Virus record (IMG/VR): IMGVR_UViG_3300025572_000006
Location: 1-37,640 of that record
Origin: a virus
Direction: 5' to 3' (one strand)
Length of the DNA: 37,640 bases
Shown: positions 1-29,087 of the stretch, piece by piece
How positions within the stretch are numbered: position 1 is the stretch's first letter
Layout: each line of letters opens with the position of its first letter
Notes under the pieces: generated by a model
The model's input: only the letters and a program-made list of their open reading frames with translations
Database searches by the model: none
Told to the model about the DNA's origin: nothing
Program-made: the position numbers and the translations under genes

Positions 1-127
1 AAGAGCCTTATTCTTACGAACAAGCTTTTGAATGCGTTTTGTTACCCCTTTTCCTTTTGCCGCTTTCTTTTCGCCATCGTCTTCGTCTTGTGCCTCATCG
101 TCCGTTGATTCGGCATCATCAGAAGAC
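1..127. repeat. Terminal direct repeat, identical to 37514..37640 (circular-assembly overlap)
   Basis: Base-by-base identity of 'aagagccttattcttacgaacaagc...atcatcagaagac' at both ends. The repeat lies inside a coding sequence, so it is not a physical terminal repeat. Confidence 0.95.
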
Positions 128-339
128 GCGTCACCGTCGTCAGTTAATCCGTTTTCTTTGGATTCTTTCTCGGCATCCTGCTTGTTTTCCGGTTCATTCT
201 GCGCTTCCGAGGTCGCAGTCGATGCTTTTGCATCGGCGTTTTCGCTGGCGCTAAGTTCTGCCAACGCGGAGTTTTCGCTAGAACCGAAGAGTTCTGCCGC
301 AGTGATGCGCTTTGCTTCGCTATTGACTGTTTCAGACAT
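1..339 (-). CDS. Scaffolding protein, N-terminal 113 codons (gene crosses the contig junction and continues 37513->36827)
   Basis: ATG at 339 overlaps the portal stop by 8 nt. Translation is MSETVNSEAKRITAAELF... with an acidic tract. Reading through base 1 into 37513 stays in frame (..KNKAL|EQELMFLREQILKS..), giving 341 aa in total. Confidence 0.7.
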   Translation of the reverse strand, partial: MSETVNSEAKRITAAELFGSSENSALAELSASENADAKASTATSEAQNEPENKQDAEKESKENGLTDDGDASSDDAESTDDEAQDEDDGEKKAAKGKGVTKRIQKLVRKNKAL

Positions 340-2506
340 GGTCAGCCTCCATGGGTGAACCCGGTGCTATATCCCCGCCGGTAGGGAGTTGATCATTCGG
401 CAAGCCAAAAGCTTCGGGCGCTAGCATTCCCGCTTGCTCTAACTCGCCGGTTTCAATTCCGTTTGATTGCATTGCCGCAACGTCTGCTGGCATTTCTCCA
501 GGAGCTACTTGCGGCGGCATTTGCGCTGCATTCATTTGATCAAGGAAATTTAAACGCGCTTCGATTTGTGCGATTTGCGCTGTGATCGCTTGAAGCGCGG
601 CACCAAAATCGCCAAGGTTCGCTTGAAGCTTCATGCGCTCAATTTCGAGGTCTTTTTCGATCTTGAGCGTTTCAATCCGCTCTTTCGATTGAAGTTCCAT
701 TTCTTTTGCAATGAGCGGATTTTTCGCTTTCTCAAGCTCAGCTTGCAGCGTTTGAATTGCGGCTTGCATTTGCTGGACTTGCGCCTGCACTTCGGGCGGA
801 AGCTGTATTTGATTTTCATCGCCCAAGATGTGCGGCGGAATCGTTCGACGAATACGTTCAGCAACTTCTTGTGCTTTCGGCCAATCCATCGCCTTGACCA
901 TAAGGTCGCCAGCAATGCCCATGATTTGCGGCGCCGCTTGTGCAATCTGCATCATGCTTGCCGCAGCTTCTTGACGCTTCGACATGTAGCTTGGGCCGCT
1001 CGTAATTCGAATGTCGTATTTGCAAGCCGAAAGATCGTAGATACGGCCATCGCCGTCCGGATTTTGCGAGTTAATGATCACAGTCTTGATTTCATCTTCG
1101 TTTCCAAGGATGCGAACGGCGCGCTCGGTGTCGTAAATCTTCGGAATGAGATCGACCAAAATGCGGCCGCAATGCTGCAAAGACGCGTCGAAATTATCTT
1201 GATAGTGATAGTTCGACGTTTGCGCCTGCATCGTGCGCTTTTGAATTGCGACACCGGACGTTTCGTTTGATTGCGCACCTAAGGCCGCATCGAAAACGCC
1301 AGTTGTGGCTTTTAAGTTTTCTGCCGCATGAAGTGCTGCTTGCGTGATTGCCGCAATTGGAGGTTCGACCGAAATCCGCTGCGGAACAAAACCGCTTTGG
1401 TCCGGTTCAAACGGCAAATAAGGCAAGTTTTCATCCGAACGGTCCCAGATTGGCTTAAACCGGTCGATGTTTTTCGGCGTCACAAGCCACGGCGCTTTCG
1501 GTGCAAGCGCAATTGCCTCGATTTTTGCCGATTCAAGCGCGTTAAACGCCATTTGCGGGTCACGCGCATCGGCCACCATTCCGCGGCGATGGATTTTTCC
1601 GTCGAGATAATACTCTTCACCGTAAACCGGAATAATCGGAATCCAACGGCCAGGCCAATCGGTCGCTTCCAAAATCTCGCAACCGTTGGTTTTCACCCAC
1701 TTGATTTGGCGAACCGTGACTTTGCGAGTTGTGCCTTCGATGACGCTTAGACCATTTGCGAAAAGATACTCTTGGTCTAATTCATCCTCGAAAAGCGTTT
1801 GTCCGTTTGAAAGGAGAAGAAGCGTTTTCTCCTGATAGTCGGAATAAAAATACTCCGCAATCCGCGTTGTTTTGTCGTTGAGGATGAAAGGATTGTCGCC
1901 GGTTCTAAATAGATCGTGTTTTGCAAGATCCGACTTCCGATAAAGACGCTTGTATTTTTCAATCGAAAGTTCTTCGGTAACAAACGCCCATTCGGCGTCG
2001 GATCCGTCGACTTCCGTCGAATGCGGGTCAAAATAAACCGAAAGCGGGTTGATGATGCGCTTAATTTTGATGTCGAGATTAAACGATCTTTCATCCGCGT
2101 ACTCGGTGAGAACGCGGAAGAATCCAAATCCGCCCGTGACTGCGTGTTCAAACGCCGTCGAGAATGCGGCCTTCGCGTTTGAGCCGTTCAAAATATAGCG
2201 AATCATTCCCTGAATGACTTCCGCAGTCGCCGGATCATTGTGATCGTCAACCGGAATCGCTTCAGGAGACGGGCTGTTTTGTTTTTGATCGTTTGTGATT
2301 TGGCGAATTGTGGGATTGATGCGGTTAAAGACCAAGCACGGTTTCCCGCGCTCTTTTCTTCTTCGTAAATCTTGATCGTCCCATTGCTCGCCGTAGCGAA
2401 AGCGAACGTCGCGCTTAAACTGCTCGCGTGCTTCGGAAAATGCATCTTCCGATTCTTTGAAACGCTCTTTAATTTCTTGTAGGAGTTCGGTTTCCGCTTT
2501 CGCCAT
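332..2506 (-). CDS. Portal protein (P22-type)
   Basis: 724 aa, directly after terL. N-terminal 'RFRYGEQWD..GKPCLVFNRI' portal-like motif. Long C-terminal coiled coil (QAQVQQMQAAIQTLQAELEKAK...). Synteny is terS-terL-portal-scaffold-coat. Confidence 0.85.
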   Translation of the reverse strand: MAKAETELLQEIKERFKESEDAFSEAREQFKRDVRFRYGEQWDDQDLRRRKERGKPCLVFNRINPTIRQITNDQKQNSPSPEAIPVDDHNDPATAEVIQGMIRYILNGSNAKAAFSTAFEHAVTGGFGFFRVLTEYADERSFNLDIKIKRIINPLSVYFDPHSTEVDGSDAEWAFVTEELSIEKYKRLYRKSDLAKHDLFRTGDNPFILNDKTTRIAEYFYSDYQEKTLLLLSNGQTLFEDELDQEYLFANGLSVIEGTTRKVTVRQIKWVKTNGCEILEATDWPGRWIPIIPVYGEEYYLDGKIHRRGMVADARDPQMAFNALESAKIEAIALAPKAPWLVTPKNIDRFKPIWDRSDENLPYLPFEPDQSGFVPQRISVEPPIAAITQAALHAAENLKATTGVFDAALGAQSNETSGVAIQKRTMQAQTSNYHYQDNFDASLQHCGRILVDLIPKIYDTERAVRILGNEDEIKTVIINSQNPDGDGRIYDLSACKYDIRITSGPSYMSKRQEAAASMMQIAQAAPQIMGIAGDLMVKAMDWPKAQEVAERIRRTIPPHILGDENQIQLPPEVQAQVQQMQAAIQTLQAELEKAKNPLIAKEMELQSKERIETLKIEKDLEIERMKLQANLGDFGAALQAITAQIAQIEARLNFLDQMNAAQMPPQVAPGEMPADVAAMQSNGIETGELEQAGMLAPEAFGLPNDQLPTGGDIAPGSPMEADHV

Positions 2507-2532: not shown

Positions 2533-2554
2533 ATGTTTACATCAAAGTAAACAT
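2533..2554. promoter_or_regulatory. Palindromic motif copy A (ATGTTTACATCAAAGTAAACAT) upstream of the portal gene
   Basis: 8-bp inverted arms. The 19-mer TGTTTACATCAAAGTAAAC is identical to the copy at 26472-26490 and differs by 1 nt from 5708-5726. It sits about 27 nt upstream of the portal ATG. Confidence 0.6.
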
Positions 2555-2574: not shown

Positions 2575-4095
2575 TCAAAATCCCAACCCAGTTGAATTAA
2601 CATCGTACCGAACACCGATCGTGTCCGGCGTGAAGATCGATGCCGATGCATCAGGAAACTTGGCGCCAAAGTCCGAATCAAGAATGCGCGACATGCAATC
2701 AAGCATGTCGTCGTGGACTGCGACCGGAAACGCCGAATATTCGTCTTCGATAAACGCTTTCACAAAATCCACAACGCGACCTTCGTAGTTAACGAACGTG
2801 TGTTTTTCAGGGAGATAAAAGCGACCTTGCTCGAAGATCGGAACAAGACGCAAAATCCGATCTTCTTTAGCAAGACTTCCGCCTAGTTCAGTGATGTTGA
2901 AACGATAATTCTCTTGCTCTTGAACATATTTGATGTGTTCGATATCCGACTGCATTCCGTAGCGTTCGTAGCCGACTGCAATCGGCCGATATTTGCGGTG
3001 AAAATCAAAGAGTTTTCTTGTTCTTTCGGTGAGGTTTAGTCGATCTCTCACGCCATCAATTAAATAGTAGTTTTGGTCCGGCCCAAGACCAACTACATTA
3101 ATCACAGTGTAGTCGCTTGTTCGCTTCTTTTGACTTGCTGGATCAACAAGGATGTAGATGTTGAAGTTCGTGGTCGAATCAAGCCTCTTATAGAACCTAA
3201 GCCACTCTTCTTTAAAGCCCATTGCTTTATCCGCTACAGGGTTTTGTAGCATTTGCGAGCCGAACGTATACGGGCCCATGTCGCGGCGTTTTTCCATAAG
3301 TTCTTCACGACTAAGGAGAACAGGCTCGCCGTCAAGTGAGCCGTCTTTTGTTGCAGGATAGATGCGAGGCTTTGCTGTGCCTCGTTCTATGATTGTCCGA
3401 TACGTGTCATTTGCATGATAGCGCGTGCCGATAAATCTTCTTGCGCCGCCTTTTGCGCCGAGGTTGTAAGAGAGCTCAAGTGCTGCTGTTGTCTTTGCAA
3501 TCTGCTCAGGCGTCGTAACTGATTCACGCGTCACAATATCGTCGTAAACAAGAATGTCGAAGTGTTTCCCCGTTGGCTGTCCATCGACAACACCCCAAGC
3601 TTCGACCGTCGCTTCTTTTGGGTTTTTGTCGCGTTTTACGATGATACCAGAATCAAGCGACCACTTTTGCGCTTCTTTTTTCGGATCAGAATAAAGAATG
3701 TCAGGGAAAAGCGATTTCAAAAACGTGTTTTGCTCTAGTTCACGTTTGATTTGATCAAGGAACGCTTTCGCGATTGGTCTAGTGTGAGAGAAAATTCCGA
3801 TCGTGATGTTTGGATTAATCAAAATGTCTTGGATGGATTTTCCGAACGTAAGAAGAGTCGATTTGTAGTGTTCACGCGCCCACAAATCCAAATGTCCGTT
3901 CGGCGACGCTTCAACTTCTCTGCAACGATCATAAAGCCAATCGCGATCGATGTCTTTTCGCTTGCACGCAACCGTGAGAAGAAAAAACAAATCTTCTCGG
4001 CAAAGCCTGCGCATGGCCTCCGTATCGTTTGCCTCAAGGACTTCGAGATAAAGCCGATTTGATTGCGTGCGAGTCAAACCTTGGCAGAGCATCAA
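2575..4095 (-). CDS. terL: Terminase large subunit
   Basis: 506 aa. 'DLWAREHYKST', 'IGIFSHTRPIAKAFL' and 'FDILVYDDIVT' form the ATPase half. 'ILVDPASQKKRTSDYTVINVVG' starts the nuclease half. ATGA start/stop overlap with terS. Confidence 0.9.
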   Translation of the reverse strand: MMLCQGLTRTQSNRLYLEVLEANDTEAMRRLCREDLFFLLTVACKRKDIDRDWLYDRCREVEASPNGHLDLWAREHYKSTLLTFGKSIQDILINPNITIGIFSHTRPIAKAFLDQIKRELEQNTFLKSLFPDILYSDPKKEAQKWSLDSGIIVKRDKNPKEATVEAWGVVDGQPTGKHFDILVYDDIVTRESVTTPEQIAKTTAALELSYNLGAKGGARRFIGTRYHANDTYRTIIERGTAKPRIYPATKDGSLDGEPVLLSREELMEKRRDMGPYTFGSQMLQNPVADKAMGFKEEWLRFYKRLDSTTNFNIYILVDPASQKKRTSDYTVINVVGLGPDQNYYLIDGVRDRLNLTERTRKLFDFHRKYRPIAVGYERYGMQSDIEHIKYVQEQENYRFNITELGGSLAKEDRILRLVPIFEQGRFYLPEKHTFVNYEGRVVDFVKAFIEDEYSAFPVAVHDDMLDCMSRILDSDFGAKFPDASASIFTPDTIGVRYDVNSTGLGF

Positions 4096-4478
4096 TCGCC
4101 CTTAAGCTGCGAAAGCCTTTCTTCAATGTCGATCTTTGTGACCGTGACTTCGCCCTTGTGCGTTGTTTCGTTCGTGTTCTGGACCTTTTCTTTCTGATCA
4201 AGATGCTGTTTGCCAAGCCAAATGAGCATCGTGGTGTTACCAGCCATTGCGGTCTCAAATTGCTTGCGGCGAAGGCTGATTTTCCCGCGAGCCGCCTTTT
4301 TGGCGTAATGCTCCGCAAAAGTTACGCCGAATTCTTCTTTTACCCGGCGCTCGATCGTGTCTTCCGAGCAATCAAAAAAGCTCGCAATCTCTGAAAGTGT
4401 GCATTGCATATGACATAGTTTATCAAACTGATCCCAGTCGATTTCGATGCGCGGCCGGCCCATTTTTTTCTTAGCCAT
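4092..4478 (-). CDS. terS: Terminase small subunit (HTH)
   Basis: 128 aa immediately upstream of terL and translationally coupled to it. N-terminal HTH-like 'CTLSEIASFFDCSEDTIERRV'. Confidence 0.7.
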   Translation of the reverse strand: MAKKKMGRPRIEIDWDQFDKLCHMQCTLSEIASFFDCSEDTIERRVKEEFGVTFAEHYAKKAARGKISLRRKQFETAMAGNTTMLIWLGKQHLDQKEKVQNTNETTHKGEVTVTKIDIEERLSQLKGD

Positions 4479-5685
4479 TGATTAACTCCGCTTTCTTGCC
4501 TGTGTACTTTTCCCAGCGATTGATGATGATGTCGCAATACTTGGGGTCTATTTCCATCCCATACACGCGGCGCCCATGTTTCTCACACGCAATGAACGCA
4601 GTGCCAGATCCAGCGAACGGCTCATATAATAGGTCGCCCTGTTTGGTATGATTCTTAATAGGTATTTCGTACAAAAGAATAGGCTTCTGAGTGGGGTGTG
4701 GAGTCTTATCCTCTTTCGAGCCGCCCATTATGTGAGCTGGCGGTGCCGCATCCCAAACTGTGACCTGTTTGCGATCTCCGACCCAATTCGCATCACATCC
4801 TTTTCTAACTGCATACCAACAAGGCTCATGCTTCCAGTGATATGCAGATCTCCCCATTATCATTACTGACTTGTTCCATATTATCTGCTGTCGCACCTCG
4901 AAACCGGCTCGTCGAAGAGAATCCATAACAACATCAGTGAACGCTGATGCGTGCCAAACGTATGCAATATCAGCATTGCAGATCGCCCAGGCGTCGTACC
5001 AATCAGCCCTGTCATCATTACTAACTAGATTGGCGTTACAACTTCCAAGCTTCTTGTCGCCAAGAGCATCGTCTCTCCATGACAGATCCAGATTGACGCC
5101 ATAAGGAGGATCTGTGACCATAAGCAGCGCCTTCTCACCAGCCATCAACTTCTCAACATCATCAATGCTCGTCGAATCCCCACACATGAGCCGATGCCGT
5201 CCCAATCGCCAAATGTCTCCACGCTTTGTTATTGGCTCAACTGGCGCCGTTGGAACTTCATCCTCATCGCATTGCGGCTCAAATTCCTCCGGCAGTTTAA
5301 AATCCGGAATACCAAGAAGATCGAAGTCAAAATCAGGTCCCAAATCCAAAACGTCGTTCAAAACCATCGAAAGATCGGTTTCTGCGAGTTCTGCGATTTT
5401 GTTATCGGCCACCATATCGGCGTATTCGTCGGCTTCATTCGCGTAGTCCTGCCGATCAATCGGCGCTTTGGTCCAACCGTTGAGTTTTGCTGCCTCGAGC
5501 CGAGCATGGCCTTTAACGATGAACCCTGACCGATTCGACACCACGATCGGCGCTCGCCAACCTTGGTGCCTCATGATTTTTGCCAGAAGCTCGATTTGCC
5601 TTTTCGGATGTTTGTTCGGGTTCTTTGGATTCGGAACCAATAAATCAATATCGATAATTTCAGTGTGAGCGCATTTGATTTCCAT
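4471..5685 (-). CDS. ParB-like nuclease domain fused to a DPPY (N6-adenine type) DNA methyltransferase
   Basis: 404 aa. N-terminus 'LVPNPKNPNKHPKRQIELLAKIMRHQGWRAPIVV' is ParB/Srx-like. 'LMVTDPPYGV' is motif IV and 'YEPFAGSGTAFIACEKHGRRVYGMEIDPKY' is motif I. Confidence 0.85.
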   Translation of the reverse strand: MEIKCAHTEIIDIDLLVPNPKNPNKHPKRQIELLAKIMRHQGWRAPIVVSNRSGFIVKGHARLEAAKLNGWTKAPIDRQDYANEADEYADMVADNKIAELAETDLSMVLNDVLDLGPDFDFDLLGIPDFKLPEEFEPQCDEDEVPTAPVEPITKRGDIWRLGRHRLMCGDSTSIDDVEKLMAGEKALLMVTDPPYGVNLDLSWRDDALGDKKLGSCNANLVSNDDRADWYDAWAICNADIAYVWHASAFTDVVMDSLRRAGFEVRQQIIWNKSVMIMGRSAYHWKHEPCWYAVRKGCDANWVGDRKQVTVWDAAPPAHIMGGSKEDKTPHPTQKPILLYEIPIKNHTKQGDLLYEPFAGSGTAFIACEKHGRRVYGMEIDPKYCDIIINRWEKYTGKKAELING

Positions 5686-5707
5686 GCTTTCATTGTCGTT
5701 GCTATCC

Positions 5708-5727
5708 TGTTTACATCAATGTAAACA
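5708..5727. promoter_or_regulatory. Palindromic motif copy B (TGTTTACAT-CA-ATGTAAACA) in the divergent control region
   Basis: Perfect 9-2-9 palindrome between the late-operon start (ATG 5685, minus) and the RHH-like gene (ATG 5783, plus). A half-site ATGTAAACA at 5775-5783 ends on that ATG. Confidence 0.6.
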
Positions 5728-5748
5728 TCGCTCGAGTTTAATTTCCGT

Positions 5749-5776
5749 TTGATCTTCGAGAATGTTTTCATAGAAT
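5749..5776 (+). promoter_or_regulatory. Candidate sigma70-type promoter giving a leaderless transcript of the RHH-like gene
   Basis: TTGATC (5749-5754), 16-nt spacer, TAGAAT (5771-5776), then 6 nt to ATG 5783. No Shine-Dalgarno sequence precedes the ATG. Confidence 0.35.
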
Positions 5777-5782
5777 GTAAAC

Positions 5783-5992
5783 ATGGATTTGAAAGAGAGA
5801 ATCCGCGAACTTCTTAAAAGCTTTCCTGTAGAGCAAAAAGTTGAACCAAAAGATCGGAAGCCGCTTACAATCTGGATTCGACCAGAGGAAAAAATGCGAT
5901 ACGATATTCTGCAGGCAAAAAGCTCTCGTGAGTTTTCAAAACTGCTTCAAAACATCGTGAGAGAAACGATCAATTCAGTTGACACGCCTTGA
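5783..5992 (+). CDS. Small ribbon-helix-helix-like DNA-binding protein (candidate regulator)
   Basis: 69 aa. 'KPLTIWIRPEEKMRYDILQAKSSREFSKLLQNIVRETI' fits a beta-strand plus two helices as in Arc/CopG folds. Divergent from the late operon. Confidence 0.5.
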   Translation: MDLKERIRELLKSFPVEQKVEPKDRKPLTIWIRPEEKMRYDILQAKSSREFSKLLQNIVRETINSVDTP

Positions 5993-6013
5993 GTTCCCGC
6001 CCTGATTCCCGCC

Positions 6014-6038
6014 AAAATAAAAAAGCCCCGATCGGGGC
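6014..6038 (-). terminator. Rho-independent terminator (second of a tandem pair)
   Basis: On the minus strand: GCCCC-GATC-GGGGC hairpin followed by TTTTTTATTTT. Confidence 0.75.
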
Positions 6039-6196
6039 GTCCTCTGCGGATTGATATATGATCGAACTGATATTTGCGATATTTCTGATCTCAGAAAAAC
6101 TCGTATTTCTCGATGAACCGATTCCATCGAGTCTTTGTCTAGAACTAAATGTTCTCGCGTCGCATGTCGATGAGAGAAAACTCATGAGTGAGGTCG

Positions 6197-6226
6197 AAAA
6201 AAGATGGCGCGGAAACGAACCGCGCC
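6197..6226 (-). terminator. Rho-independent terminator after the HTH gene
   Basis: On the minus strand: GGCGCGG-ttcgttt-CCGCGCC hairpin, then ATC TTTTTT. It lies 43 nt downstream of the stop at 6269. Confidence 0.8.
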
Positions 6227-6268
6227 TTGAAGCTTTTCATACGTTTTGGGAAAACAGAGATATATGCA

Positions 6269-6478
6269 CTATTTCTGACCGACCTTGATTTGCCATAGTT
6301 CCCATTTCGCCGGATCCATTTTTCTATCGCCAGCTTCCCAATACTGCCAAGCGCGCAGAGTCGCTCCGATCAAAGCGCCAGCTTCTTTTTGCGTGAGACC
6401 GGCTTTTTCGCGTGCCTTACGGACCTCGGCGGGCGTTGGGGTTTTGCGTTTTGGTGCTGATGTCATACAATCACCCAT
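6269..6478 (-). CDS. XRE-family helix-turn-helix protein
   Basis: 69 aa. 'PTPAEVRKAREKAGLTQKEAGALIGATLRAWQYWEAGDRKM' is a classic HTH_XRE pattern. An alternative ATG at 6466 has the better SD (GGTGA). Confidence 0.7.
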   Translation of the reverse strand: MGDCMTSAPKRKTPTPAEVRKAREKAGLTQKEAGALIGATLRAWQYWEAGDRKMDPAKWELWQIKVGQK

Positions 6479-7644: not shown

Positions 7645-8035
7645 CAAAAAATGCTGCAAAACGTAATTTTTTCATGCTCAAAAACCCACGTGATTTCAAG
7701 TACTTATGCTGCCTGCGCGAATAAGATCAGCGCTTTGATCTTATTTTGATACGTCCTGGCGGTCTATTTGGCGGGCATGGGTATATCTATATATATAATC
7801 AGTCACGAATAAGACTGAAAGCAACCTGCAACTGTTCGCCGTTCCGGCACTGGATACCGAACACGTCCAAACACCATTTAATGTTAGAGCTTATTGTTTC
7901 AACTTTATCGTCGTGTGATCGAACAACACGCCCCGTGTATCTTTGTAAACAAAAATTATTTTCGCGCATGAAGCGTTTTGATGTTCACCCATTCACAACA
8001 AGGCGCCTTGTCGATCGCTTTGTTATCAAAAACGA

Positions 8036-9413: not shown

Positions 9414-9521
9414 TCACCCCTGTTTCGTTTCAGCGTCACCGCTCGGACACTCACACGCACTCCAGTTATCGCAAATAGCGCAGTACCTTCGATCATCTGC
9501 CATTTGAGCCAACATTCTCAT
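9414..9521 (-). CDS. 35-aa Cys-rich peptide
   Basis: MRMLAQMADDRRYCAICDNWSACECPSGDAETKQG. ATGA overlap with the C5-methylase stop. Confidence 0.4.
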   Translation of the reverse strand: MRMLAQMADDRRYCAICDNWSACECPSGDAETKQG

Positions 9522-10564
9522 GCTATGAACTCCTTCGCCGCTTTGATGAATTCCGCCGCCGCTTGGGCAACGATTGCATTGCCGTAACACCGCAATCGTC
9601 CCACTCTTTCGGGAGCCCCATTAGCCAACGGGAATGTGCCGGGTTCAACTGGCCGAAATTTCCCGTCTCGGCAAAAGATCCAGTCAGCAGGCCCCCAGAA
9701 TCCACGAGTTGCGCTTGCAAATTGAGGGATGTCAGCGACACTCCGATACTCAAGCCTGATTCCTTTACAGCTTTCTTCCTCGCCAAGAATTGCTCCGGTG
9801 TGCTGCCCGTGGCATCGTTCGCGATCGGTGATGGCCATGCCGCGAGTGACGCTATCGTGAAAAGTTTCCGACCCGTGGACTTCATCGGTTCCACTCCGCC
9901 CGTGCAATCGCAGGCCCGCGGACTCGGCCAAGTCGCAAGCGCTGCCGCTACCGGTAATCGATCGATCTCCTGATTCGAGCCGCCATTCGGCCCATCTTGC
10001 GCGCACGTTGTGGGCCACGAACCAAATTCTGGATCGGATGTGCGGCGCGCCGACGCCACAAGCTGGAAATACGATCGGCGCGATGGCGTAACCTTCTCCT
10101 TCCAAGTCAGTCGATACAATGTCGAGCCAAGCGATGCCGTCACGAGACGCAACCTGTTCGCCAAAGATTGTGTCAGGGCGATACTCTCGAATGAGCCACT
10201 GCCATGCGGGCCATAAGTGCCGCTCGTCAGAAGTCCCTTTTCTTCTGCCTGCCGCGGAGAAAGGTTGACATGGACACGAGCCAGTCCAGACCGGCTTGTC
10301 ATCGGGCCATCCTGCGAGTCGGAGCGCGTAGGACCAGACGCCGATTCCGGCGAAGAAGTGATGTTGTGTGAATCCTTCAAGATCGCTTGGTCTGACATCC
10401 CTGATATCCCTTTCATCGACTTCGCCAGCAGCGATAAGTCCTTCCTTGATGAGTTCACGAAGCCATGCTGCTGCTTTCGGATCGATCTCGTTGTAATAGG
10501 CCCTCATCGAGCGTTGTCCTTCAGAATCGTTGTCGGACCGTGAGTTACTAAATAGATGTCGCAT
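9518..10564 (-). CDS. DNA (cytosine-5)-methyltransferase (frame A)
   Basis: Motif I 'FFAGIGVWS', IV 'GSCPCQPFSAAG', VI 'FGEQV', VIII 'GAPHIRSRIWFVA', X 'YGNAIVAQAAAEFI'. The likely true start is ATG 10507 (MRAYYNEIDP...). Confidence 0.85.
   Translation of the reverse strand: MRHLFSNSRSDNDSEGQRSMRAYYNEIDPKAAAWLRELIKEGLIAAGEVDERDIRDVRPSDLEGFTQHHFFAGIGVWSYALRLAGWPDDKPVWTGSCPCQPFSAAGRRKGTSDERHLWPAWQWLIREYRPDTIFGEQVASRDGIAWLDIVSTDLEGEGYAIAPIVFPACGVGAPHIRSRIWFVAHNVRARWAEWRLESGDRSITGSGSACDLAESAGLRLHGRSGTDEVHGSETFHDSVTRGMAITDRERCHGQHTGAILGEEESCKGIRLEYRSVADIPQFASATRGFWGPADWIFCRDGKFRPVEPGTFPLANGAPERVGRLRCYGNAIVAQAAAEFIKAAKEFIA
9523..10302 (-). CDS. Nested same-strand ORF in another frame (frame B): WPxP-repeat / 'LNPAHSRWLMGLP' protein
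   Basis: Open for 311 codons (9523..10458). ATG 10302 has an AGGA 7 nt upstream. Three W-P-[ST]-[TP]-x-A-x-D-x-x-G repeats and 'QLNPAHSRWLMGLPKEWDDC' resemble TRD/motif-IX regions of phage C5-methylases. Confidence 0.4.
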   Translation of the reverse strand: MTSRSGLARVHVNLSPRQAEEKGLLTSGTYGPHGSGSFESIALTQSLANRLRLVTASLGSTLYRLTWKEKVTPSRRSYFQLVASARRTSDPEFGSWPTTCAQDGPNGGSNQEIDRLPVAAALATWPSPRACDCTGGVEPMKSTGRKLFTIASLAAWPSPIANDATGSTPEQFLARKKAVKESGLSIGVSLTSLNLQAQLVDSGGLLTGSFAETGNFGQLNPAHSRWLMGLPKEWDDCGVTAMQSLPKRRRNSSKRRRSS

Positions 10565-12048: not shown

Positions 12049-12236
12049 CTGCGCCCTCCGCGCTTGATTCCAATCCGCCACTTTTCCAGTTCATCAAAAC
12101 GCTTGATCCAATCAAGCATCGTCGAGTGACTAACGCCGAGCGATTTCGCCGCTTTCACGGGATTGCCTGCAAACATCTCAAGTCTTTCATTCGCAAGTTT
12201 CAGTTTGATTTCGTGAAGCGTTGGTAAGTTGTTCAT
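12045..12236 (-). CDS. Small HTH DNA-binding protein (63 aa)
   Basis: 'AAKSLGVSHSTMLDWIKRF' is HTH-like. 4-nt overlap with the methylase stop. Confidence 0.55.
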   Translation of the reverse strand: MNNLPTLHEIKLKLANERLEMFAGNPVKAAKSLGVSHSTMLDWIKRFDELEKWRIGIKRGGRR

Positions 12237-13669
12237 GCGATCTCCAACTCAAGTTGCGTTTTAAAATTCCAATCCTCTATGCGCTTCAAAGCCATTTCCC
12301 GATATTCCGGGTTTATTTCTATGCCGAGAAATTGGCGTCCGTGTTTCTTACAAACAATTCCGGTTGTGCCAGCCCCGGCGAATGGGTCAAGCACCAAATC
12401 GCCAGGTCGTGAGCCAGCGAGAATACAAGGCTCGATCAAATCTGGGGGGAATGTTGCTAGATGAGCGCCTTTGAATGGCTTGGTCGAAACCGTCCAGACC
12501 GAGCGTTTGTTCCTCGTGTTGTTGGGAATCCTCTGCCTTACTTTTTGGGCACGACCAAGTTGATGTTCCCCGGTTTTCCCAGTGTGAAACTGAGATCCGC
12601 GCCAGCCGCAAGTAGCCGGTTCTTTAATCGCCTCATTATCGAAGAAGTAACGCTCCGATTTCGCGAGTAAAAAAATGTACTCGTGCGCTTTGGTGCATCG
12701 ATCGCGCACTGATTCAGGCATCGGGTTCGGTTTGTGCCAGATCACATCCTGCCGGAGATACCACCCAGGCTCTACAGCAATCCTCGGTTCGACCATCCAA
12801 GATGGAAGATCGACATTCTCACGAGCATTCAGCTTCTGGAGTATTTCTCTGCACAGCAACTGCTTTGCGAGAGCGTCCTCTGGGATCTTTGCGCCTCGCT
12901 TCGTTTCGTAGCTGTCTCGAACGGTTTGCAGGTTGTAAGCGACAACAGCCTGCTTTCTCTTAACCAACAGGTACGGATAGATCTCGGCCAAGATGTCGGC
13001 AGCCTTCCTGCTGTGTATGCGCCACTGGTAGGAACCTCGCTGTCCGCCTTGGGACGGCGGTTCCTGCTTGGGAGATCCCTTTCCGTACCCGGTAATTTCA
13101 CAGCAGCGAATGATTGGCTCAGGGTCGCACATCCGCACCTGAAGGATTGGCGGGTAACTGTTTCCTGACCCATGCCCGGACTTGCACTCAAGCGCGGTGA
13201 TGCAACCTTCACCGTCGATCAGCGCCGCCAGCCATGCGCGGTCGATCCTGTCCTTGATCCGGACGCGCTCGTACGGCTGTTGCAGTGCGAATGCAAGACG
13301 CCAAGGAATGCCGACTAGGTCTTTAGGTTTGAGGCCATTTGGAATTTTGCAGGACTTTCCTAGCTGAAAATGAGTCCCTTTGTTTGACGATTGTTTGTCG
13401 GAAAGCTTTAACGAACCTCGGCCCTGTCCACCGGCGTAACTATCGCCAAGGTTGAGCCACAGCGTTCCGTCATCTTTCAAAACACGTCGAACTTCTCGAA
13501 ACACTTCAACTAACTTCTCGACGTATTCTTCCGGCGTTTTCTCAAGGCCGATCTGTCCATGAACTCCATAATCGCGCAGTCCCCAGTATGGCGGGGACGT
13601 AACGCAAGTTTGCACCGACTCAGACTCAAGAGTTTTCAATGTTTCTAGCGCGTCGCCGAGAAGAATCAT
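12233..13669 (-). CDS. SPPY-type (N4-C/N6-A, beta-class) DNA methyltransferase with an inserted LAGLIDADG-like module
   Basis: 'CVTSPPYWGLRDYG' is motif IV. Also 'GWYLRQDVIWHKPNPMPESVRDR' and 'VLDPFAGAGTTGIVCKKHGRQFLGIEINPEY' (motif I). About 169 aa are inserted at 12770-13276, containing 'AWLAALIDGEGC'. The start is set at ATG 13669 (ATGA coupling). Confidence 0.85.
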   Translation of the reverse strand: MILLGDALETLKTLESESVQTCVTSPPYWGLRDYGVHGQIGLEKTPEEYVEKLVEVFREVRRVLKDDGTLWLNLGDSYAGGQGRGSLKLSDKQSSNKGTHFQLGKSCKIPNGLKPKDLVGIPWRLAFALQQPYERVRIKDRIDRAWLAALIDGEGCITALECKSGHGSGNSYPPILQVRMCDPEPIIRCCEITGYGKGSPKQEPPSQGGQRGSYQWRIHSRKAADILAEIYPYLLVKRKQAVVAYNLQTVRDSYETKRGAKIPEDALAKQLLCREILQKLNARENVDLPSWMVEPRIAVEPGWYLRQDVIWHKPNPMPESVRDRCTKAHEYIFLLAKSERYFFDNEAIKEPATCGWRGSQFHTGKTGEHQLGRAQKVRQRIPNNTRNKRSVWTVSTKPFKGAHLATFPPDLIEPCILAGSRPGDLVLDPFAGAGTTGIVCKKHGRQFLGIEINPEYREMALKRIEDWNFKTQLELEIA

Positions 13670-13848: not shown

Positions 13849-14416
13849 CACAAGACCCCGGAAGTCTGAGAAATGAACTCAAAACTTCTTTTGCTGATGC
13901 GAGCTCGCCTTGCGCTTTAGGTGTTGCGCTTGGAAGGCCGATCGCGTCCGCAATCGCTTCGTCTGAATGCGTAAGCTGTGTTTTCGCAAGCTCCCGCACT
14001 TGCGCTTGAAACACGGTCGGATCAATCGAAAGGCCAAGATGTTCGCAGATGTATGACCACCCGCCTTGTTTTTGAACGACTCGCCAGCCAACTTCGCCAA
14101 TATAGGCTCGCGCTTCTTGCGGATTCGCCCATCCGAATTTCGGGACGGCCGCAGTGATTCGTGCGGCGATTTCGCGTGCAGCCGACTCAGGATCGACTTG
14201 CGGCTGAACGATCTCTCGAATTTGTGCGGGTAGCGGCATCGTGCGATTTTTCGGATTGCGTCGATACTTCTCCATTGCATCGCGCACCTGCGCGAAGTCG
14301 AGATCCGAAAGATCGTCGGCGTACATTCGCAGGACAACATCGTCCAGTCTCATGCGGTAATAGCCCGCATAAGCCGCCCAGAGGGCCGCCAGTTGATTTT
14401 TTTCAGCGGGGGTCAT
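13817..14416 (-). CDS. Replication-associated protein (possible helicase loader)
   Basis: 199 aa from ATG 14416 (SD AGGGGGTGA). It follows the initiator-like gene. 'LAALWAAYAGYY..VVLRMYADDLSDLDFAQVRDAMEKY' resembles loader/G39P-type N-termini (from memory only). Confidence 0.4.
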   Translation of the reverse strand: MTPAEKNQLAALWAAYAGYYRMRLDDVVLRMYADDLSDLDFAQVRDAMEKYRRNPKNRTMPLPAQIREIVQPQVDPESAAREIAARITAAVPKFGWANPQEARAYIGEVGWRVVQKQGGWSYICEHLGLSIDPTVFQAQVRELAKTQLTHSDEAIADAIGLPSATPKAQGELASAKEVLSSFLRLPGSCDVNSLSSEHI

Positions 14417-15158
14417 AGTCACCCCCTGCCAGCCTGCGGATTTGGTTTTTAAGCGATTCTGACGCTTCGGCGTTTTTCGCATCTTGCGCTGTGACAACTT
14501 GACCGGTCGCGAGAAAGTTTTGGACCTGGTTTAAATTCGCAATCAGCGTCGCGACATCATGCGCCTTTGTGATGAACCACGAGTTGTTCATCGCGATGTA
14601 GGCGTTGATGAGGGCCTTTGCTCTTTCCTCGCCAACCGACTCCCCAAGGTTTTTGAGAAGCTTGCCGTCTTGCGGACGAATCACCGGATTGACGCTGTAG
14701 CGCTTGCGGTATTCGTCGCAGTAGTGCGCAACGAGAATTTTTCCGATTTGAGCGGGAGCGATAGCGACCTGCGCCGCAGGCGTTTCCTGAATTTCGCGCC
14801 CTTTATTTTCTTTTATTTTCTTTTCTTTTCTTTTCTTTTCTTTTCTATTAGAGGGCAAATTTAGCAGTCTAACTAGTTGATTTCTTTCGAGTGACTGTAG
14901 CGCCGTCACGACGTCGTAACGACTTTGTCCGATACTGGTCGTGAGTTGCTGGCGTGTTGGTCGAATCACCGCCGAGTAGTCGTCAGCACATCGTGCAAGC
15001 AAGATCACGTATAGGAGACGCTCTACTGGCGTAAGCGTCGCGACTTTGTGATCGTCAAAAATGCGTTTTGCGACCGGGAAATAAGCGTGGTTTTTCTTAA
15101 GCCCGCCTTTGTGTTTTTCCCAGTTGAGAACCTCAATTTCGAAGACCTCGTTTGCCAT
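14403..15158 (-). CDS. Putative replication initiator / replisome organiser (winged-HTH N-terminus)
   Basis: 251 aa from ATG 15158 (GGAGG 9 nt upstream). wHTH-like 'LTPVERLLYVILLARCADD...QLTTSIGQSRYDVVTALQSLERNQLV'. Lys/Glu linker encoded by a (GAAAA)n tract. Confidence 0.5.
   Translation of the reverse strand: MANEVFEIEVLNWEKHKGGLKKNHAYFPVAKRIFDDHKVATLTPVERLLYVILLARCADDYSAVIRPTRQQLTTSIGQSRYDVVTALQSLERNQLVRLLNLPSNRKEKKRKEKKIKENKGREIQETPAAQVAIAPAQIGKILVAHYCDEYRKRYSVNPVIRPQDGKLLKNLGESVGEERAKALINAYIAMNNSWFITKAHDVATLIANLNQVQNFLATGQVVTAQDAKNAEASESLKNQIRRLAGGDYDPR
14816..14845. repeat. Pentanucleotide microsatellite (TTTTC)x6 inside the initiator gene
   Basis: Six perfect tandem TTTTC units, preceded by two TTTTATTTTC units (14801-14820). 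Encodes KEKKRKEKKIKENK on the minus strand. Confidence 0.9.
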
Positions 15159-16896: not shown

Positions 16897-16926
16897 AAAA
16901 GTTGAAGCGAGGCCGCTCGCTTCAAC
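16897..16926 (-). terminator. Strong rho-independent terminator between the early genes and xis-int
   Basis: On the minus strand: perfect 11-bp stem GTTGAAGCGAG-cggc-CTCGCTTCAAC followed by TTTT. Confidence 0.8.
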
Positions 16927-19657: not shown

Positions 19658-19669
19658 TGCGCCTCGAAA

Positions 19670-19720
19670 GTTACACAAAACCTTACCAAATCGCAACACG
19701 AAAGTATTGTTTTGTGTAAC
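19670..19720. promoter_or_regulatory. Genetic-switch operators: perfect 12-bp inverted repeat GTTACACAAAAC / GTTTTGTGTAAC
   Basis: Arms at 19670-19681 and 19709-19720, separated by 27 bp, in the 88-bp region between the divergent Cro-like and CI-like genes. Confidence 0.6.
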
Positions 19721-19745
19721 GACGGAAATAATTTCATAACGTATT

Positions 19746-20225
19746 GTGCAAATAATGAAGAAACTCTCGGAAAAACAAATACTTACGACTTTCGCCCAGA
19801 AGGTGCGCGAACTCCGAGAGTTACGCGGACTAACGCAAGAGCAATTGGCCGAAGCCGCAGGCATATCGAAAAACGCCGTTACCCTCATCGAGCTCGAACA
19901 AAGAGCTCCCCGAATCAATACAGTTGTTGCCCTTGCCTATGGCCTTGGCGTTGAACCATCAGAACTTCTGCGCTTCTCAATTTCTACGGAAAATCTACGG
20001 ACGGTTGCTGAGCCGTCTGCGCCGTACGAAAACGGTCTTAATCCCCAGGAAATCGCCGACCTGATTTTGGCTTACGGAAACGCAGAATCTTCGCTCCGCG
20101 CTTCGATTCGTCGCCAACTTGGTCTCGAGAAATCGGATCAGGATCGCGAGGCTTTTGAACGGCACGCTCTTTCATATCGCGAGCAACGAGATAAGCTTCA
20201 AATAAAAGATCGCAAAGGCGAGTAA
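19746..20225 (+). CDS. CI-like repressor (XRE-family HTH)
   Basis: 'FAQKVRELRELRGLTQEQLAEAAGISKNAVTLIELEQRAPRINTVVALAYGLGVEPSELL'. No SD. GTG 19746 or ATG 19755. Possibly leaderless from TTGTGT-N17-CATAAC. Confidence 0.8.
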   Translation: MQIMKKLSEKQILTTFAQKVRELRELRGLTQEQLAEAAGISKNAVTLIELEQRAPRINTVVALAYGLGVEPSELLRFSISTENLRTVAEPSAPYENGLNPQEIADLILAYGNAESSLRASIRRQLGLEKSDQDREAFERHALSYREQRDKLQIKDRKGE

Positions 20226-26448: not shown

Positions 26449-26471
26449 GGCCTAAGTGTTTGTCTGAAACG

Positions 26472-26490
26472 TGTTTACATCAAAGTAAAC
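26472..26490. promoter_or_regulatory. Palindromic motif copy C (TGTTTACATCAAAGTAAAC)
   Basis: Identical 19-mer to copy A. It lies 2 nt after the 864-aa gene stop and about 23 nt before ATG 26448. Confidence 0.6.
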
Positions 26491-26492
26491 TT

Positions 26493-29087
26493 CTACTCAT
26501 TTTCATAGATGCGATATTGCGAAGGTGTAGCGGAATCGCTGTCTAGTTCACCTCCTGCAACTTGTGTTAAACCCGTTTCCTTCGCTCTTTGAGCTGCACG
26601 ACCAGAAAGAATCGTAAGTTCAAATTGACGGATAAGGTCCTGCTTCACGTTCTCCGGCAAGTCCATGCGGCGAATTGCGCTTGGAGTAAGTGGTCCTCTG
26701 ATTTTGATTAAGCCATCAAGGATTTTCTTCGTAACTTGTGGGCCGTAAACATCCATCATCGCGCCAAGCGTTGCGCCAAGCGCAGCGCCAACTGGACCGC
26801 CTACAATGCCGCCAGCGGCCGCGCCAGCAAGACCCGATTTGCTAAACGCAGCCTGCGCGCCGATACCAAGCACAGTAAACAGGTTCACGTTTCTTGAACC
26901 GTGAAACGCCGTCTTTGTGAACGCCGCGGCGTCTCGCCAAGCATTCACGGCCTCTACGAAGTCTTGATTTTCTAGCTCAGACAACTCCTTAAGCAATTTT
27001 GTCGCGTACTTTCGTCCAGCAGCAACTTGCTTTAGTTTCGCCTCGGCGGTTTGTTCACCAAACGACCTGAACTTATTCGCAAGTTCTTTTGCGGTCTTGA
27101 AATTCGCCTCAGCCGACCGCGCATTGAAGAATGCCGCTGATTTCCTAATCGCTTCTTGAATAGCTTTGGGTTTTGCCATTCGTTTGGCTACAGCCGCTTG
27201 CATTTCGGCTTGGCGAAGCGTTTGAGCTTCCGGAAGACCGCGCCGAATTTCTTCTAGCCTCATTGGACTACGCAAAGTCCGTTGCGCTTCAACCATGCTT
27301 TCAACGGCGCGAACGGCATCAGGGCCTTCTCGAGCAACAAGGTTTTGAAGTGTCGCAAGGTCATGTTTTGCAGTCGGCCGCCCAAGGTTAGCAAGGCGAG
27401 AAAGACGCGTTTGATCTTTTCCAAATCGCTCGACAGCTTCTGAGAAAATCCGCGTATCTTCGGCCACCTGGGCCATCTTTTGAGCGTATTCGGGAACCTT
27501 CTCTTTTAGTTGCTCATCAAGCGCTCGCCGAACGGATTGAAATGCCTTTGATACTTCATCAGTAAATGCGTTTGCATCGTAGATGATTCTTTCAGCGCGA
27601 TCGATTTGTTGAATGACGCGTTTTGCTTCGGTAAAGGACAACTTCGCCGGCACTCGTCCTAACGTGTTGACCAAGGCAAGAATTTCTCTTTGTGCGGCTT
27701 CGGCTTGAGGCGTTGCCGGACCAGCGTTGCCGACATTCATTTCCTTTGCGGCACGCTTTAAACCCCTCCATGCTTTTTGAAGATCAATATAGACGCGATT
27801 GCCAATGCGTTTTTTGGCTCTTTGTTTCGCATCCATTTCTTCGAGGATTTCAAAGGCTTCAGTTGAACCTTTTGAAATCCTCTCTCTTTGTGCTCTAAGA
27901 GCGTCTTCAACAACGGGTTCAAGTCGTGTCGGTGACGCTTGATCTGCAATCTGTGCCTTTTTCGATTTAAAGGCTTCATCAAGCGCAGCTTTGGCTTGTT
28001 GAACTTCTTCTAAAGCTCGAGCCTTGCCTTCGATGCGAGACTCTTTAATGCTTCGAGAAACATCGTCCAAATGCGCTTTTGCGGCATCATAGTTGATCTT
28101 CTTTTGTTCAAGATCGTCGAAAAGATTGCGAACAACGCCGGTAACTTCCTCGTAAATCTCATCGAAGGTTTTCGCATTCCGGATGCGCTCGGGATCTTTT
28201 AGATACCTGTCGATTACGTCCTCGGAAACCCCGCCAATAGCCGAAAGAAGTTTTTTGCCAGCGGCTGGAACTGCGCGGCCAACGCCTTTTACAACGTTCT
28301 CCGCGCCTCGGAATGCTGCGGGCATTACTGCACCCGTTCCGAATCCAACCGCACCACCTTCAAGACGTGCTCCAAGATCAGTAAAACCTGACTCCGGCGT
28401 GTAAGCAGCACCTAAAGCAGCGCCTTCTAAAGCCAAACGTCCGCCTTGCGCTGCAAGATCAAGACGTGCAGCGCGTGTAAGTTGTGCAGCTCTTGCCGCA
28501 TCACCTGCTAAACGCGCTTCATTTGCTGCGCGGTAAAGATCTCTAGCTCGCCCGGCTTGCGACATCGCTTGTGCTGCTTGGCCGATTCTACCAGGCGCTT
28601 GAGCGGCGACTTGCAAACCTTTTCCAACCAAGCGTGAAGCGCCAACACCTGGAGCAATGAAGCCAGCAAGTTGGCCGGCAAGCGCGAAGCCAGGCGCTTT
28701 TTCTTGAAGTGCTTTTCCTTGTTCTCGGAATTTTTGGACTCGAGCCTCAAACGGTTCGTTCCCCATCGGAATGCCAAGCGTTTTCTCGGCAAGCCAATCG
28801 GTCGCAACCTCGCCAGCGGCTTTAAGATATGGAAGTGTGCCAAGCGATGAACTTTCGGCAAAACCCTCAAGCGCTGCGCGTGCTTGATCGCTAACCGTTG
28901 GACCGCTATCGGCAGTCTCACCAATACCTGCCCAAGCGTTATAAGGCGTCCATTCATCTTTTCCGACTTTGACATAAACCGTTCCGTCTTTCGCCTGGCG
29001 CGTGACCGGTTCCCACTCGTCCTGACCGACTTTGCGATAGAATGTTCCGTCTTTAGCCTGCCGTTCGATAGCTTGCGTTTGTGCCAT
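26493..29087 (-). CDS. Large Ala-rich internal virion / ejection-type protein (864 aa)
   Basis: Position equivalent to the P22 ejection proteins. Long helical Ala/Gln/Arg-rich body. C-terminal Gly-zipper hydrophobic segment 'GLAGAAAGGIVGGPVGAALGATLGAMM'. Confidence 0.5.
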   Translation of the reverse strand: MAQTQAIERQAKDGTFYRKVGQDEWEPVTRQAKDGTVYVKVGKDEWTPYNAWAGIGETADSGPTVSDQARAALEGFAESSSLGTLPYLKAAGEVATDWLAEKTLGIPMGNEPFEARVQKFREQGKALQEKAPGFALAGQLAGFIAPGVGASRLVGKGLQVAAQAPGRIGQAAQAMSQAGRARDLYRAANEARLAGDAARAAQLTRAARLDLAAQGGRLALEGAALGAAYTPESGFTDLGARLEGGAVGFGTGAVMPAAFRGAENVVKGVGRAVPAAGKKLLSAIGGVSEDVIDRYLKDPERIRNAKTFDEIYEEVTGVVRNLFDDLEQKKINYDAAKAHLDDVSRSIKESRIEGKARALEEVQQAKAALDEAFKSKKAQIADQASPTRLEPVVEDALRAQRERISKGSTEAFEILEEMDAKQRAKKRIGNRVYIDLQKAWRGLKRAAKEMNVGNAGPATPQAEAAQREILALVNTLGRVPAKLSFTEAKRVIQQIDRAERIIYDANAFTDEVSKAFQSVRRALDEQLKEKVPEYAQKMAQVAEDTRIFSEAVERFGKDQTRLSRLANLGRPTAKHDLATLQNLVAREGPDAVRAVESMVEAQRTLRSPMRLEEIRRGLPEAQTLRQAEMQAAVAKRMAKPKAIQEAIRKSAAFFNARSAEANFKTAKELANKFRSFGEQTAEAKLKQVAAGRKYATKLLKELSELENQDFVEAVNAWRDAAAFTKTAFHGSRNVNLFTVLGIGAQAAFSKSGLAGAAAGGIVGGPVGAALGATLGAMMDVYGPQVTKKILDGLIKIRGPLTPSAIRRMDLPENVKQDLIRQFELTILSGRAAQRAKETGLTQVAGGELDSDSATPSQYRIYENE

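Follow-up and report, generated by a model that had tools for sequence, protein, structure and literature searches.

What controls the late genes of an uncultured P22-like phage? The question is raised by a short divergent region in IMG/VR record IMGVR_UViG_3300025572_000006, which we analysed over positions 1 to 37,640 (this whole stretch of 37,640 nucleotides (nt) is called the window below). In the region, at 5,686–5,992, a palindrome and a plus-strand open reading frame (ORF) of 69 amino acids (aa) adjoin the first gene of a minus-strand late operon. Late-gene control is known in detail for a few model phages (lambda Q, P2 Ogr, Mu C, T4 gp55/33 and RinA); to our knowledge, it is unexplained for most environmental phages. 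A preliminary description of the region, made from the letters alone, had proposed a phage-specific circuit in which a ribbon-helix-helix (RHH)-like protein acts on operators of late genes. Comparison with related phages supports such a circuit, as far as comparative sequence analysis reaches: the small protein probably binds a set of recurring sites and controls the late transcription units behind them. That it acts as an activator is our preferred but tentative reading.

The palindrome TGTTTACATCAATGTAAACA (site B; Table 1) was found with the sequence and at the position first described, ending 22 nt ahead of the minus-strand ATG at 5685, and near-identical palindromes do occur, as reported, before the portal and fibre genes (sites A and D). 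On the minus strand, site B reads GTTTAC-ATTGAT-GTAAAC and sites A and D both read GTTTAC-TTTGAT-GTAAAC; the latter two are followed by 12 nt, a hexamer (GACGCT at 2522–2517 and AACACT at 26460–26455, respectively) and, after 10 nt and 6 nt, the ATG of the portal and fibre genes. A single perfect palindrome with 9-nt arms is at chance level in this genome (three distinct ones, shuffle mean 2.1). The 18-mer GTTTACWTTGATGTAAAC, on the other hand, occurs in three copies where 2e-6 are expected, and all copies are intergenic (8.7% of the genome), share one orientation and lie 23–28 nt ahead of a start codon. The two other perfect palindromes, ATAAGATCA-N6-TGATCTTAT and TTGAAGCGAG-GCCG-CTCGCTTCAA, are located at 7721–7744 and 16902–16925; TTGAAGCGAG-GCCG-CTCGCTTCAA sits between the excisionase gene and the next early gene.

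A further site (site C) covers the start of the small gene. Here a half-site, ATGTAAACA, had been recorded at 5775–5783, its last A being the A of the plus-strand ATG at 5783. This position is correct, but because the half-site has a left partner, TGTTTTCAT at 5763–5771, it is the right arm of an imperfect full site. Site C is specific to the window phage (it is absent as such from the five-phage alignment described below) and is likely to serve negative autoregulation of the small gene. An exact 20-mer search of viral contigs led nowhere, and 17 other viral contigs with a single motif match encode no member of the small-protein family and look like chance matches. Terminators were also considered as a reading of the palindromes and rejected, as no T run follows the sites and the sites travel with the downstream gene.

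We compared the window with four related phages: L008/L103 (IMG/VR 3300042988_000801), L108, L119 and L120, whose orthologs of the small protein are 52–59% identical. All four have the same bipartite site between the small gene and the divergent first late gene. The site upstream of the portal gene is present in each of the three relatives for which the portal region was retrieved (L008, L119 and L120), and the site upstream of the fibre gene in the L008 phage (L103), the one relative with fibre data, where the downstream CAAACACTnAGGCnATGGC is shared with site D. Altogether, these are 11 sites in five phages, identical in architecture and orientation, and their start codons follow the proximal subsite at 23–28 nt. 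The subsites vary (GTTTAC, GTAAAC or GTGCAC); the centre, WTTGAT, is the same at every site and points each time toward the late gene behind it. The element is GTTTAC-WTTGAT-GTAAAC in the window, L008 and L108 phages; in L119 both sites are direct repeats (GTAAAC-N6-GTAAAC), and in L120 the proximal subsite is GTGCAC. The perfect 9-2-9 palindrome of the preliminary description thus recurs beyond chance but is not the conserved feature, which is instead the bipartite unit GTnnAC-WTTGAT-GTnnAC, with two pseudo-palindromic subsites 12 bp apart centre to centre and a directional TTGAT between them. A directional element between symmetric subsites fits a -35 promoter element.

A hexamer of the form nAnnnT lies 11–12 nt past the proximal subsite at 11 of 11 sites, with the start codon 5–10 nt further on, mostly 6 (GACAAT, AAAAAT, GGAAAT, GACGCT, AACGCT, AACACT, AACCCT, GAGAGT and GACTCT are the forms observed); it is found likewise at the portal and packaging sites of a more distant locus, L113, and at 13 nt in another, L114. 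The spacers around nAnnnT are not alignable between phages. The centre of site B lies 32.5–33.5 nt ahead of the first late ORF in all five phages and 65.5–66.5 nt from the start of the small gene in four, the distance in L119 being 60.5 nt. On the side of the small gene, the five phages share the order main site, 9 nt, a third half-site-like element, a TTGAT-type -35, 16–17 nt, TAnnnT, 6 nt and start codon; the third element, GTTTAA in the window, is kept as GTnTAm with the same spacing in each of them.

Across a wider set of loci, the motif co-occurs and co-varies with the subfamily of the small protein, as a regulator and its operators would be expected to do. Of 80 loci that contain a related methyltransferase gene, the motif was found only in the one encoding the small protein and was absent from the other 79. 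More distant members of the family have other repeats in the corresponding places: TGTATACA-ATT-TGTATACA in L114 (11 bp apart), GT(T)AAAC arrays in L113, GTAAAAC/GTTTTAC in L087, GTAAACA/TGTTTAC in L109 and CTAAAG/CTTTAG in L115 and L117. In six of six loci for which both could be compared, the divergent region and the region upstream of the portal gene share a significantly long word (12, 12, 9, 13, 9 and 15 nt; empirical p < 0.003 in four loci and 0.02–0.04 in two), and these words differ among subfamilies. The small gene is divergent from the first packaging gene in 10 of 10 informative loci, in phages with a P22-type portal; that first gene encodes a ParB-methyltransferase, a ParB-N protein or a TerS (GP3 or Terminase_2 type), or is a small ORF that overlaps the start of TerS. 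In the window and L008 phages, non-homologous genes precede sites A and D (TerL and an 864-aa gene at 26493–29087 in the window), and the last early genes are not homologous either. What both phages do share, besides the small protein, are the sites and the 5' ends of the genes behind them. Each site is therefore tied to the gene downstream of it, and the small protein is the only regulator candidate shared beside the sites.

The 69-aa ORF is a real gene. In L082 (ERZ777003), a variant 95.8% identical to the window across 5282–6272, five of five substitutions in the ORF are third-position and synonymous. The protein belongs to no Pfam, PHROG or NCBIfam family, and a word-indexed protein search returned only the self-match. 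An exhaustive HMMER search identified 29 relatives of 64–80 aa with end-to-end matches, and a profile search added more, giving ~40 relatives overall, all from metagenome assemblies. Patterns derived from the family were unproductive in genome contigs and matched only ERZ777003 in metagenome contigs; tblastn of the protein and of the family consensus against GenBank phages found nothing. Judging from these and the profile search, the family appears to be absent from cultured phages. Its conserved core comprises R-x-P-I-T-I-W, E-x-K-x-K-Y-D-x-L-Q and F-S-K-x-L-x-x-V, with W31, Y40 and Q44 invariant; the family alignment contains no conserved cysteines.

An AlphaFold2 model of the monomer (predicted local distance difference test (pLDDT) 86 overall and 93–97 for residues 30–60) has a short N-terminal helix, an extended segment holding the conserved PITIW, and helices at 34–46 and 50–67. 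An extended strand followed by two helices is a topology compatible with RHH, and to this extent the model agrees with the RHH-like label given to the protein earlier. The profile matches are marginal, each to a single one of 31 members (RHH_9, 0.035; RHH_1, 0.091; the Arc-like phrog_582, 0.079; RelB-like, 0.0067), but every one of these families is of RHH type. Because no match reaches significance, we infer an RHH fold, as a reasonable reading of the model, rather than report it as a finding. Two other roles for such a protein were considered and rejected. A toxin–antitoxin gene (RelB/CopG-like) would have a conserved adjacent downstream partner, whereas the small gene is monocistronic in the window, L008 and L108, and its downstream neighbours in other loci are not conserved. 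Partition (suggested by a likeness to parS, the neighbouring ParB-N gene and dispersed sites as in N15) was rejected, as there is no ParA, integrase and excisionase genes are present, and the ParB-N methyltransferase is without the HTH (helix-turn-helix) that reads parS; a 'partition protein' PHROG was matched marginally by a single family member.

How might the sites act on transcription? Read along the minus strand, the early/late junction consists of the last early gene (Xre-type HTH), two terminators (t1 and t2), the plus-strand 69-aa ORF, the palindrome at 5708–5727 and the late operon. With tandem terminators upstream, the late region needs a promoter of its own. The gene described earlier as the first late gene, starting at ATG 5685, was identified as a ParB-N/N6-N4 methyltransferase gene heading TerS, TerL and portal. 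Between t2 and this ATG, the late strand holds only two sigma70-like candidates, one of which, putative late promoter 1, contains TTGATG within site B and GACAAT downstream of it. L082 has four substitutions in the control region, every one of them in the spacer that parts TTGATG from GACAAT; both elements and the 6 nt ahead of ATG are unchanged. The directional TTGATG, a 16–17-bp spacer, nAnnnT and a start codon ~7 nt further on can be read as a weak sigma70-type promoter. Missing the first T, the -10 hexamers at the late sites are a poor match to the consensus (2–4 of 6 positions), unlike the TAnnnT of the regulator's own promoter. A weak core promoter with a conserved flanking site is typical of activator-dependent promoters.

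For the small gene, the preliminary description had proposed transcription from TTGATC-N16-TAGAAT as a leaderless mRNA. The promoter-like sequence is present, but on its own is at chance level (9 promoter-like hits in 12 kb, 11.4 expected). What lends it weight is its geometry: TAnnnT lies exactly 6 nt ahead of the small-gene start in 8 of 11 independent loci, the chance being 1/64 per locus (TAGAAT in the window, TATGGT in L008, TAGATT in L108, TACGAT in L119, TAAAAT in L120, TATAGT in L087, TAGTAT in L114 and TATAGT in L115). The reported lack of a Shine–Dalgarno (SD) sequence was borne out, anti-SD pairing being +0.2 kcal/mol compared with a genome median of -6.9. Together, the conserved spacing and the missing SD support a leaderless mRNA well. 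The genes behind the late sites are similar in the latter respect (methyltransferase -3.1 kcal/mol; portal and fibre, Table 1), and all four site-adjacent genes fall in the weakest SD quartile (p roughly 0.004). Promoter readings of Bacteroidetes type or extracytoplasmic function (ECF) type, judged by eye, were discarded, as the spacing is wrong and the host uses SD sequences.

We propose the following mechanism. A sigma70-type promoter of its own would give the small gene a leaderless mRNA, and the product, from an unannotated family and probably of RHH type, would bind DNA as a small dimer. It would recognise the two GTnnAC subsites, whose spacing of 12 bp would fit one dimer per subsite. 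Sites A, B and D would straddle the invariant TTGATG, the presumed -35 of three weak late promoters, with subsites at about -42 to -37 and -30 to -25 on either side of it and a degenerate -10 (nAnnnT) 16–17 bp downstream of TTGATG. Late transcription would start at, or a few nt from, the start codons of the ParB-methyltransferase (head of the packaging operon), portal and tail fibre genes. The protein may also regulate its own promoter through the conserved upstream third subsite and, in the window phage, additionally through site C. Activation is our guess at the direction of regulation, favoured because weak core elements with a conserved flanking site recur at several late units, as in P2 with Ogr.

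The type of system, a phage regulator with dispersed operators at late promoters, is already known. As in P2, 186 and P4 (Ogr, B and Delta) and in Mu (C), one small phage protein would serve dispersed late promoters that share a dyad-type site, and the predicted core promoters are weak and activator-dependent, as with Ogr. P2 has four late promoters with TGT-N12-ACA, before its packaging/portal, capsid and tail operons. Likewise, several late units share one element here, with three sites each in the window and L008 phages. Ogr is a Cys4 zinc-finger protein (CX2CX22CX4C), and the sites in P2 have their centre near -55; here, by contrast, the family has no Cys motif and no sequence similarity to Ogr, the site straddles -35 (centre ~-33 if transcription starts at ATG), and the regulator gene is divergent from the first late gene and predicted to be leaderless. 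Site centres lie 32.5–37.5 nt ahead of the start codons, hence at most -33 to -37 upstream and not at -55.

A closer geometric parallel is lambda cII at PRE, PI and PaQ, where three weak promoters each have their -35 between the two repeats of TTGC-N6-TTGC and cII binds the face opposite sigma. This repeat/-35 geometry closely matches GTnnAC-N6-GTnnAC around TTGATG. cII differs in being an HTH tetramer that binds direct repeats and serves the establishment of lysogeny rather than late genes, it shows no homology, and the hexamer between the repeats here is itself a good TTGA-type -35. In Gram-positive phages with RinA, ArpU or LtrC, as proposed here, the promoter just ahead of the first packaging gene is served by a phage factor and lies behind a terminator that closes off the early operon. 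The RinA gene stands, co-directional, last in its early operon, and its product serves one late promoter whose leader is 23–24 nt; the small protein is unrelated to it in sequence (no PHROG or Pfam match), with a divergent gene in 10 of 10 informative loci, several predicted promoters and minimal leaders. Lambda cI made from PRM is a leaderless phage regulator mRNA, and here, too, the predicted transcript starts at the A of AUG with no SD, although the geometry is family-wide (8 of 11 loci), belongs to a different protein family and may extend to the target late genes. New particulars are an unannotated family apparently absent from cultured phages (GenBank phages were searched), a predicted site that straddles -35, a regulator gene predicted to be leaderless throughout the family and always divergent from the packaging operon, and possibly leaderless late genes.

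Several points weigh against the proposed mechanism. RHH proteins bound at -35 are usually repressors, and the small protein gave no significant match in Pfam, in PDB profiles or with Foldseek (PDB and BFVD), nor did hhalign detect profile similarity to Arc and ParG. The small-gene promoter looks constitutive, with no prophage-repressor operator seen nearby, and as a constitutive late activator would be lethal in a lysogen, further control must be assumed. Several downstream genes have a short-spaced AGG or GAGG directly ahead of the start codon and the portal genes of L113–L115 start with GTG, both of which fit leaderless late mRNAs poorly; the sigma70 consensus rules are borrowed and may not be those of the host. 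Finally, one RNA-derived contig spans TerL, site A and portal. It is consistent with read-through, and compatible with an internal start as well. The two metatranscriptomes with fragments of the phage, both from compost, have a depth of 2–4, too sparse for mapping of transcript ends. The full combination, in which a leaderless RHH-like protein of ~70 aa is the sole early-to-late switch of a widespread set of uncultured P22-like phages, activates from across the -35, commands a leaderless or near-leaderless late regulon and co-evolves with its operators in specificity, is unlikely to hold in its entirety.

A serious alternative, though we consider it somewhat unlikely, reverses the sign: the small protein would be a repressor, a 'late-gene lock' made constitutively in the lysogen that occludes the late -35, blocks internal read-through, or both, and represses itself at site C, with parallels in P22 Mnt/Arc, CopG and the L5 stoperators. 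The sites do cover the -35 region, a position from which RHH-type proteins such as CopG normally repress; the phage is temperate (integrase and cI-like repressor); the promoter of the small gene is good and apparently constitutive, with site C as its predicted autoregulatory site; and early transcription converges on the gene and could turn it off in lytic growth. Arc and Mnt (P22 immI) and CopG are similarly small (45–83 aa), with the strand-helix-helix order predicted here, a divergent arrangement, autoregulation and two subsites that overlie promoter elements at a distance of about one helical turn, and the window phage has P22-type morphogenesis genes; the subsite spacing (12 bp; 11 bp in L114) is consistent with RHH binding at this distance. 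They differ in that no sequence or profile similarity is detectable and that the targets here are packaging, portal and fibre genes at three dispersed sites, rather than an antirepressor, under regulation that may be positive. The sites are also stoperator-like, being short, intergenic within late operons and in a single orientation relative to transcription. The L5 gp71 stoperators are ~24–30 asymmetric 13-bp sites bound by the prophage repressor, whereas the three sites here are bipartite, unrelated to the cI/cro operators and held in a fixed, promoter-like geometry to start codons. Against repression, promoters with so weak a -10 hardly need it, and it leaves the missing SDs and the fixed distances between site, nAnnnT and start codon unexplained. 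In L115 and L117, moreover, the family gene heads a long early-type operon, where a late-gene repressor would leave no obvious route to late expression, and no antirepressor or other relief mechanism is visible.

It is improbable that another factor (a phage regulator, a host factor or a phage-modified RNA polymerase) reads the sites, with the small protein only regulating itself or being unrelated. The link between protein and sites does rest on comparison of sequences, further small HTH proteins are encoded at the end of the window's early operon, and one relative, P0006, has a sigma70-family gene beside the small gene. But the window and L008 phages have identical sites and yet do not share the genes that end the early operon, the motif changes along with the small-protein subfamily and is missing from the 79 related loci without the protein, and the main site keeps a near-fixed 60.5–66.5 nt from the small-gene start.

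Very improbable, too, is the alternative raised in the preliminary description, that the repeats act as RNA hairpins in the late transcript, 22–27 nt ahead of start codons, in processing, stabilisation or translational control. True, the sites belong to transcribed intergenic spacers, their distance to the start codon hardly varies, and those of the window, L008 and L108 can form hairpins of 6–8 bp (-5 to -9 kcal/mol). Relative to shuffled sequence, the folding is no more than marginal (z = -2.4, -1.8 and +0.6). The direct repeats of L119 and the non-complementary arms of L120 (-0.2 to -2.6 kcal/mol) lose the hairpin while centre, spacing, hexamer and start distance are kept; the arms are conserved in sequence rather than covarying, and the TTGAT of the loop is invariant and directional. 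As a separate observation, plus-strand RNA over sites B and C (5700–5800) could pair the same arms in a long-range hairpin (-26.8 kcal/mol, z = -3.1), which would be relevant only if transcription began upstream of site B, as the predicted promoter does not suggest.

That the repeats are passive 'linkers' at module boundaries, merely promoting recombination of mosaic phages, is hardly credible: mosaic joints do occur at sites A and D, where the upstream genes of the window and L008 differ, but this would explain neither site B and its fixed relation to the small gene nor the directional centre, the hexamer geometry and the co-variation with protein subfamily, and conserved regulatory sites would turn into recombination joints as a by-product.

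Table 1 Features of the early/late junction and of the late sites in the window
Feature	Position	Strand	Remarks
Small regulator gene (predicted), 69 aa	5783..5992	+	Unannotated family; RHH-like by prediction; predicted leaderless
Small-gene promoter (predicted)	5749..5776	+	TTGATC-N16-TAGAAT; A of ATG 5783 is the 7th nt after the -10
Site B, main operator (predicted)	5708..5727	.	TGTTTACAT-CA-ATGTAAACA (= TGTTTACATCAATGTAAACA); core 5709-5726
Site A	2534..2553	.	TGTTTACATCAAAGTAAACA; precedes portal gene
Site D	26472..26491	.	TGTTTACATCAAAGTAAACT; precedes fibre gene
Site C, imperfect 9-3-9	5763..5783	.	TGTTTTCAT-AGA-ATGTAAACA; covers -10 and start of small gene
Third half-site-like element	5736..5741	+	GTTTAA; exactly 9 nt from site B, just upstream of small-gene -35
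Late promoter 1 (putative)	5692..5719	-	-35-like TTGATG (5719-5714), 16-nt spacer, -10-like GACAAT (5697-5692), 6 nt, ATG 5685
First late gene, ParB-N / N6-N4 DNA methyltransferase	4471..5685	-	ATG at 5685
TerS	4092-4478	-	After methyltransferase gene
TerL	2575-4092	-	After TerS
P22-type portal gene	332..2506	-	ATG at 2506; no SD (+0.4 kcal/mol)
Fibre/tailspike-type gene, 234 aa	25744..26448	-	ATG at 26448; weak SD (-1.8 kcal/mol)
Last early gene, Xre-type HTH, 69 aa	6269-6478		
Intrinsic terminator t1	6206..6226	-	GGCGCGG...CCGCGCC and T run; after last early gene
Intrinsic terminator t2	6015..6038	-	GCCCCGATCGGGGC and T run; terminates early-operon transcription ahead of late region

The genomic setting of these features is that of a closed circular (or circularly permuted) phage genome of ~37.5 kb. 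An exact terminal overlap of 127 nt (window 1–127 = 37514–37640) identifies the genome as complete and circularly closed. The minus strand carries nearly all of its genes. The phage is temperate, its gene content including a cI-like HTH gene facing a cro-like gene, integrase, excisionase, RecT and RusA, and its morphogenesis module has a P22-type portal and coat. There are three DNA methyltransferase genes: the ParB-N6/N4 gene (4471–5685), a C5 gene and a second N6/N4 gene (the other coordinates being 9518–10507 and 12233–13669). The N-terminus of the fibre protein is 70% identical to that of the L103 fibre. In a search for the host, the portal protein matched an Accumulibacter metagenome-assembled genome at 39% identity and proteobacterial podoviruses at no more than 40%. 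The phage or near variants of it are present in bioreactor, manure, compost and soil metagenomes. At the junction, the t2 hairpin is also positioned 3' of the small gene, and a plus-strand 76-aa ORF at 6058–6288 is regarded as spurious, overlapping terminator t1 and not being conserved.

Additional observations concern the relatives and other parts of the window. In the P0006 contig (ERZ1426851), a 244-aa sigma70-family gene stands directly beside the small gene, in the place that DUF8280 and HTH genes take in the window; late transcription in part of this phage group may rely on a phage sigma factor. In L119, an uncalled ORF of ~62 aa (MAEIIGANTSDQ..., 9724–9931, minus strand) starts 23 nt past the site, overlaps the TerS start and appears to be the true first late gene of that phage. 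When L082 is compared with window 4590–5282, the ParB-N6/N4 fusion is seen to be replaced by a first late gene for a 167-aa ParB-N protein with a CPRCG zinc-ribbon-like tail and, behind it, a distinct gene for a C5-cytosine methyltransferase, with a module-swap breakpoint near 5282. Mosaic recombination joints between the window and L008/L103 coincide with sites A and D. The cI/cro intergenic region (19658–19754; also 19755–20225) contains 12-nt inverted repeats, GTTACACAAAAC and GTTTTGTGTAAC, 27 nt apart and unrelated to the GTTTAC motif, and the cI-like gene is likewise without an SD (+0.6 kcal/mol) and may be leaderless as lambda cI is. A pentanucleotide tract, (TTTTC)n-like on the plus strand, lies at 14798–14846 within a 251-aa ORF (14403–15158), where such a 5-nt repeat inside a coding sequence could change the reading frame.

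For uncultured P22-like phages from compost, manure, soil and bioreactors, these results provide a testable circuit, consisting of a protein family, a predicted recognition code and three targets. The predicted code, GTnnAC-N6-GTnnAC, comes with natural specificity variants, and co-varying pairs of protein and operator would make a ready orthogonal set of small regulators for synthetic biology. If the protein does activate from a position straddling the -35, it would work in a way that is unusual among RHH-type proteins; and if the late mRNAs are indeed leaderless, these phages would offer a rare case of structural phage genes using leaderless translation.

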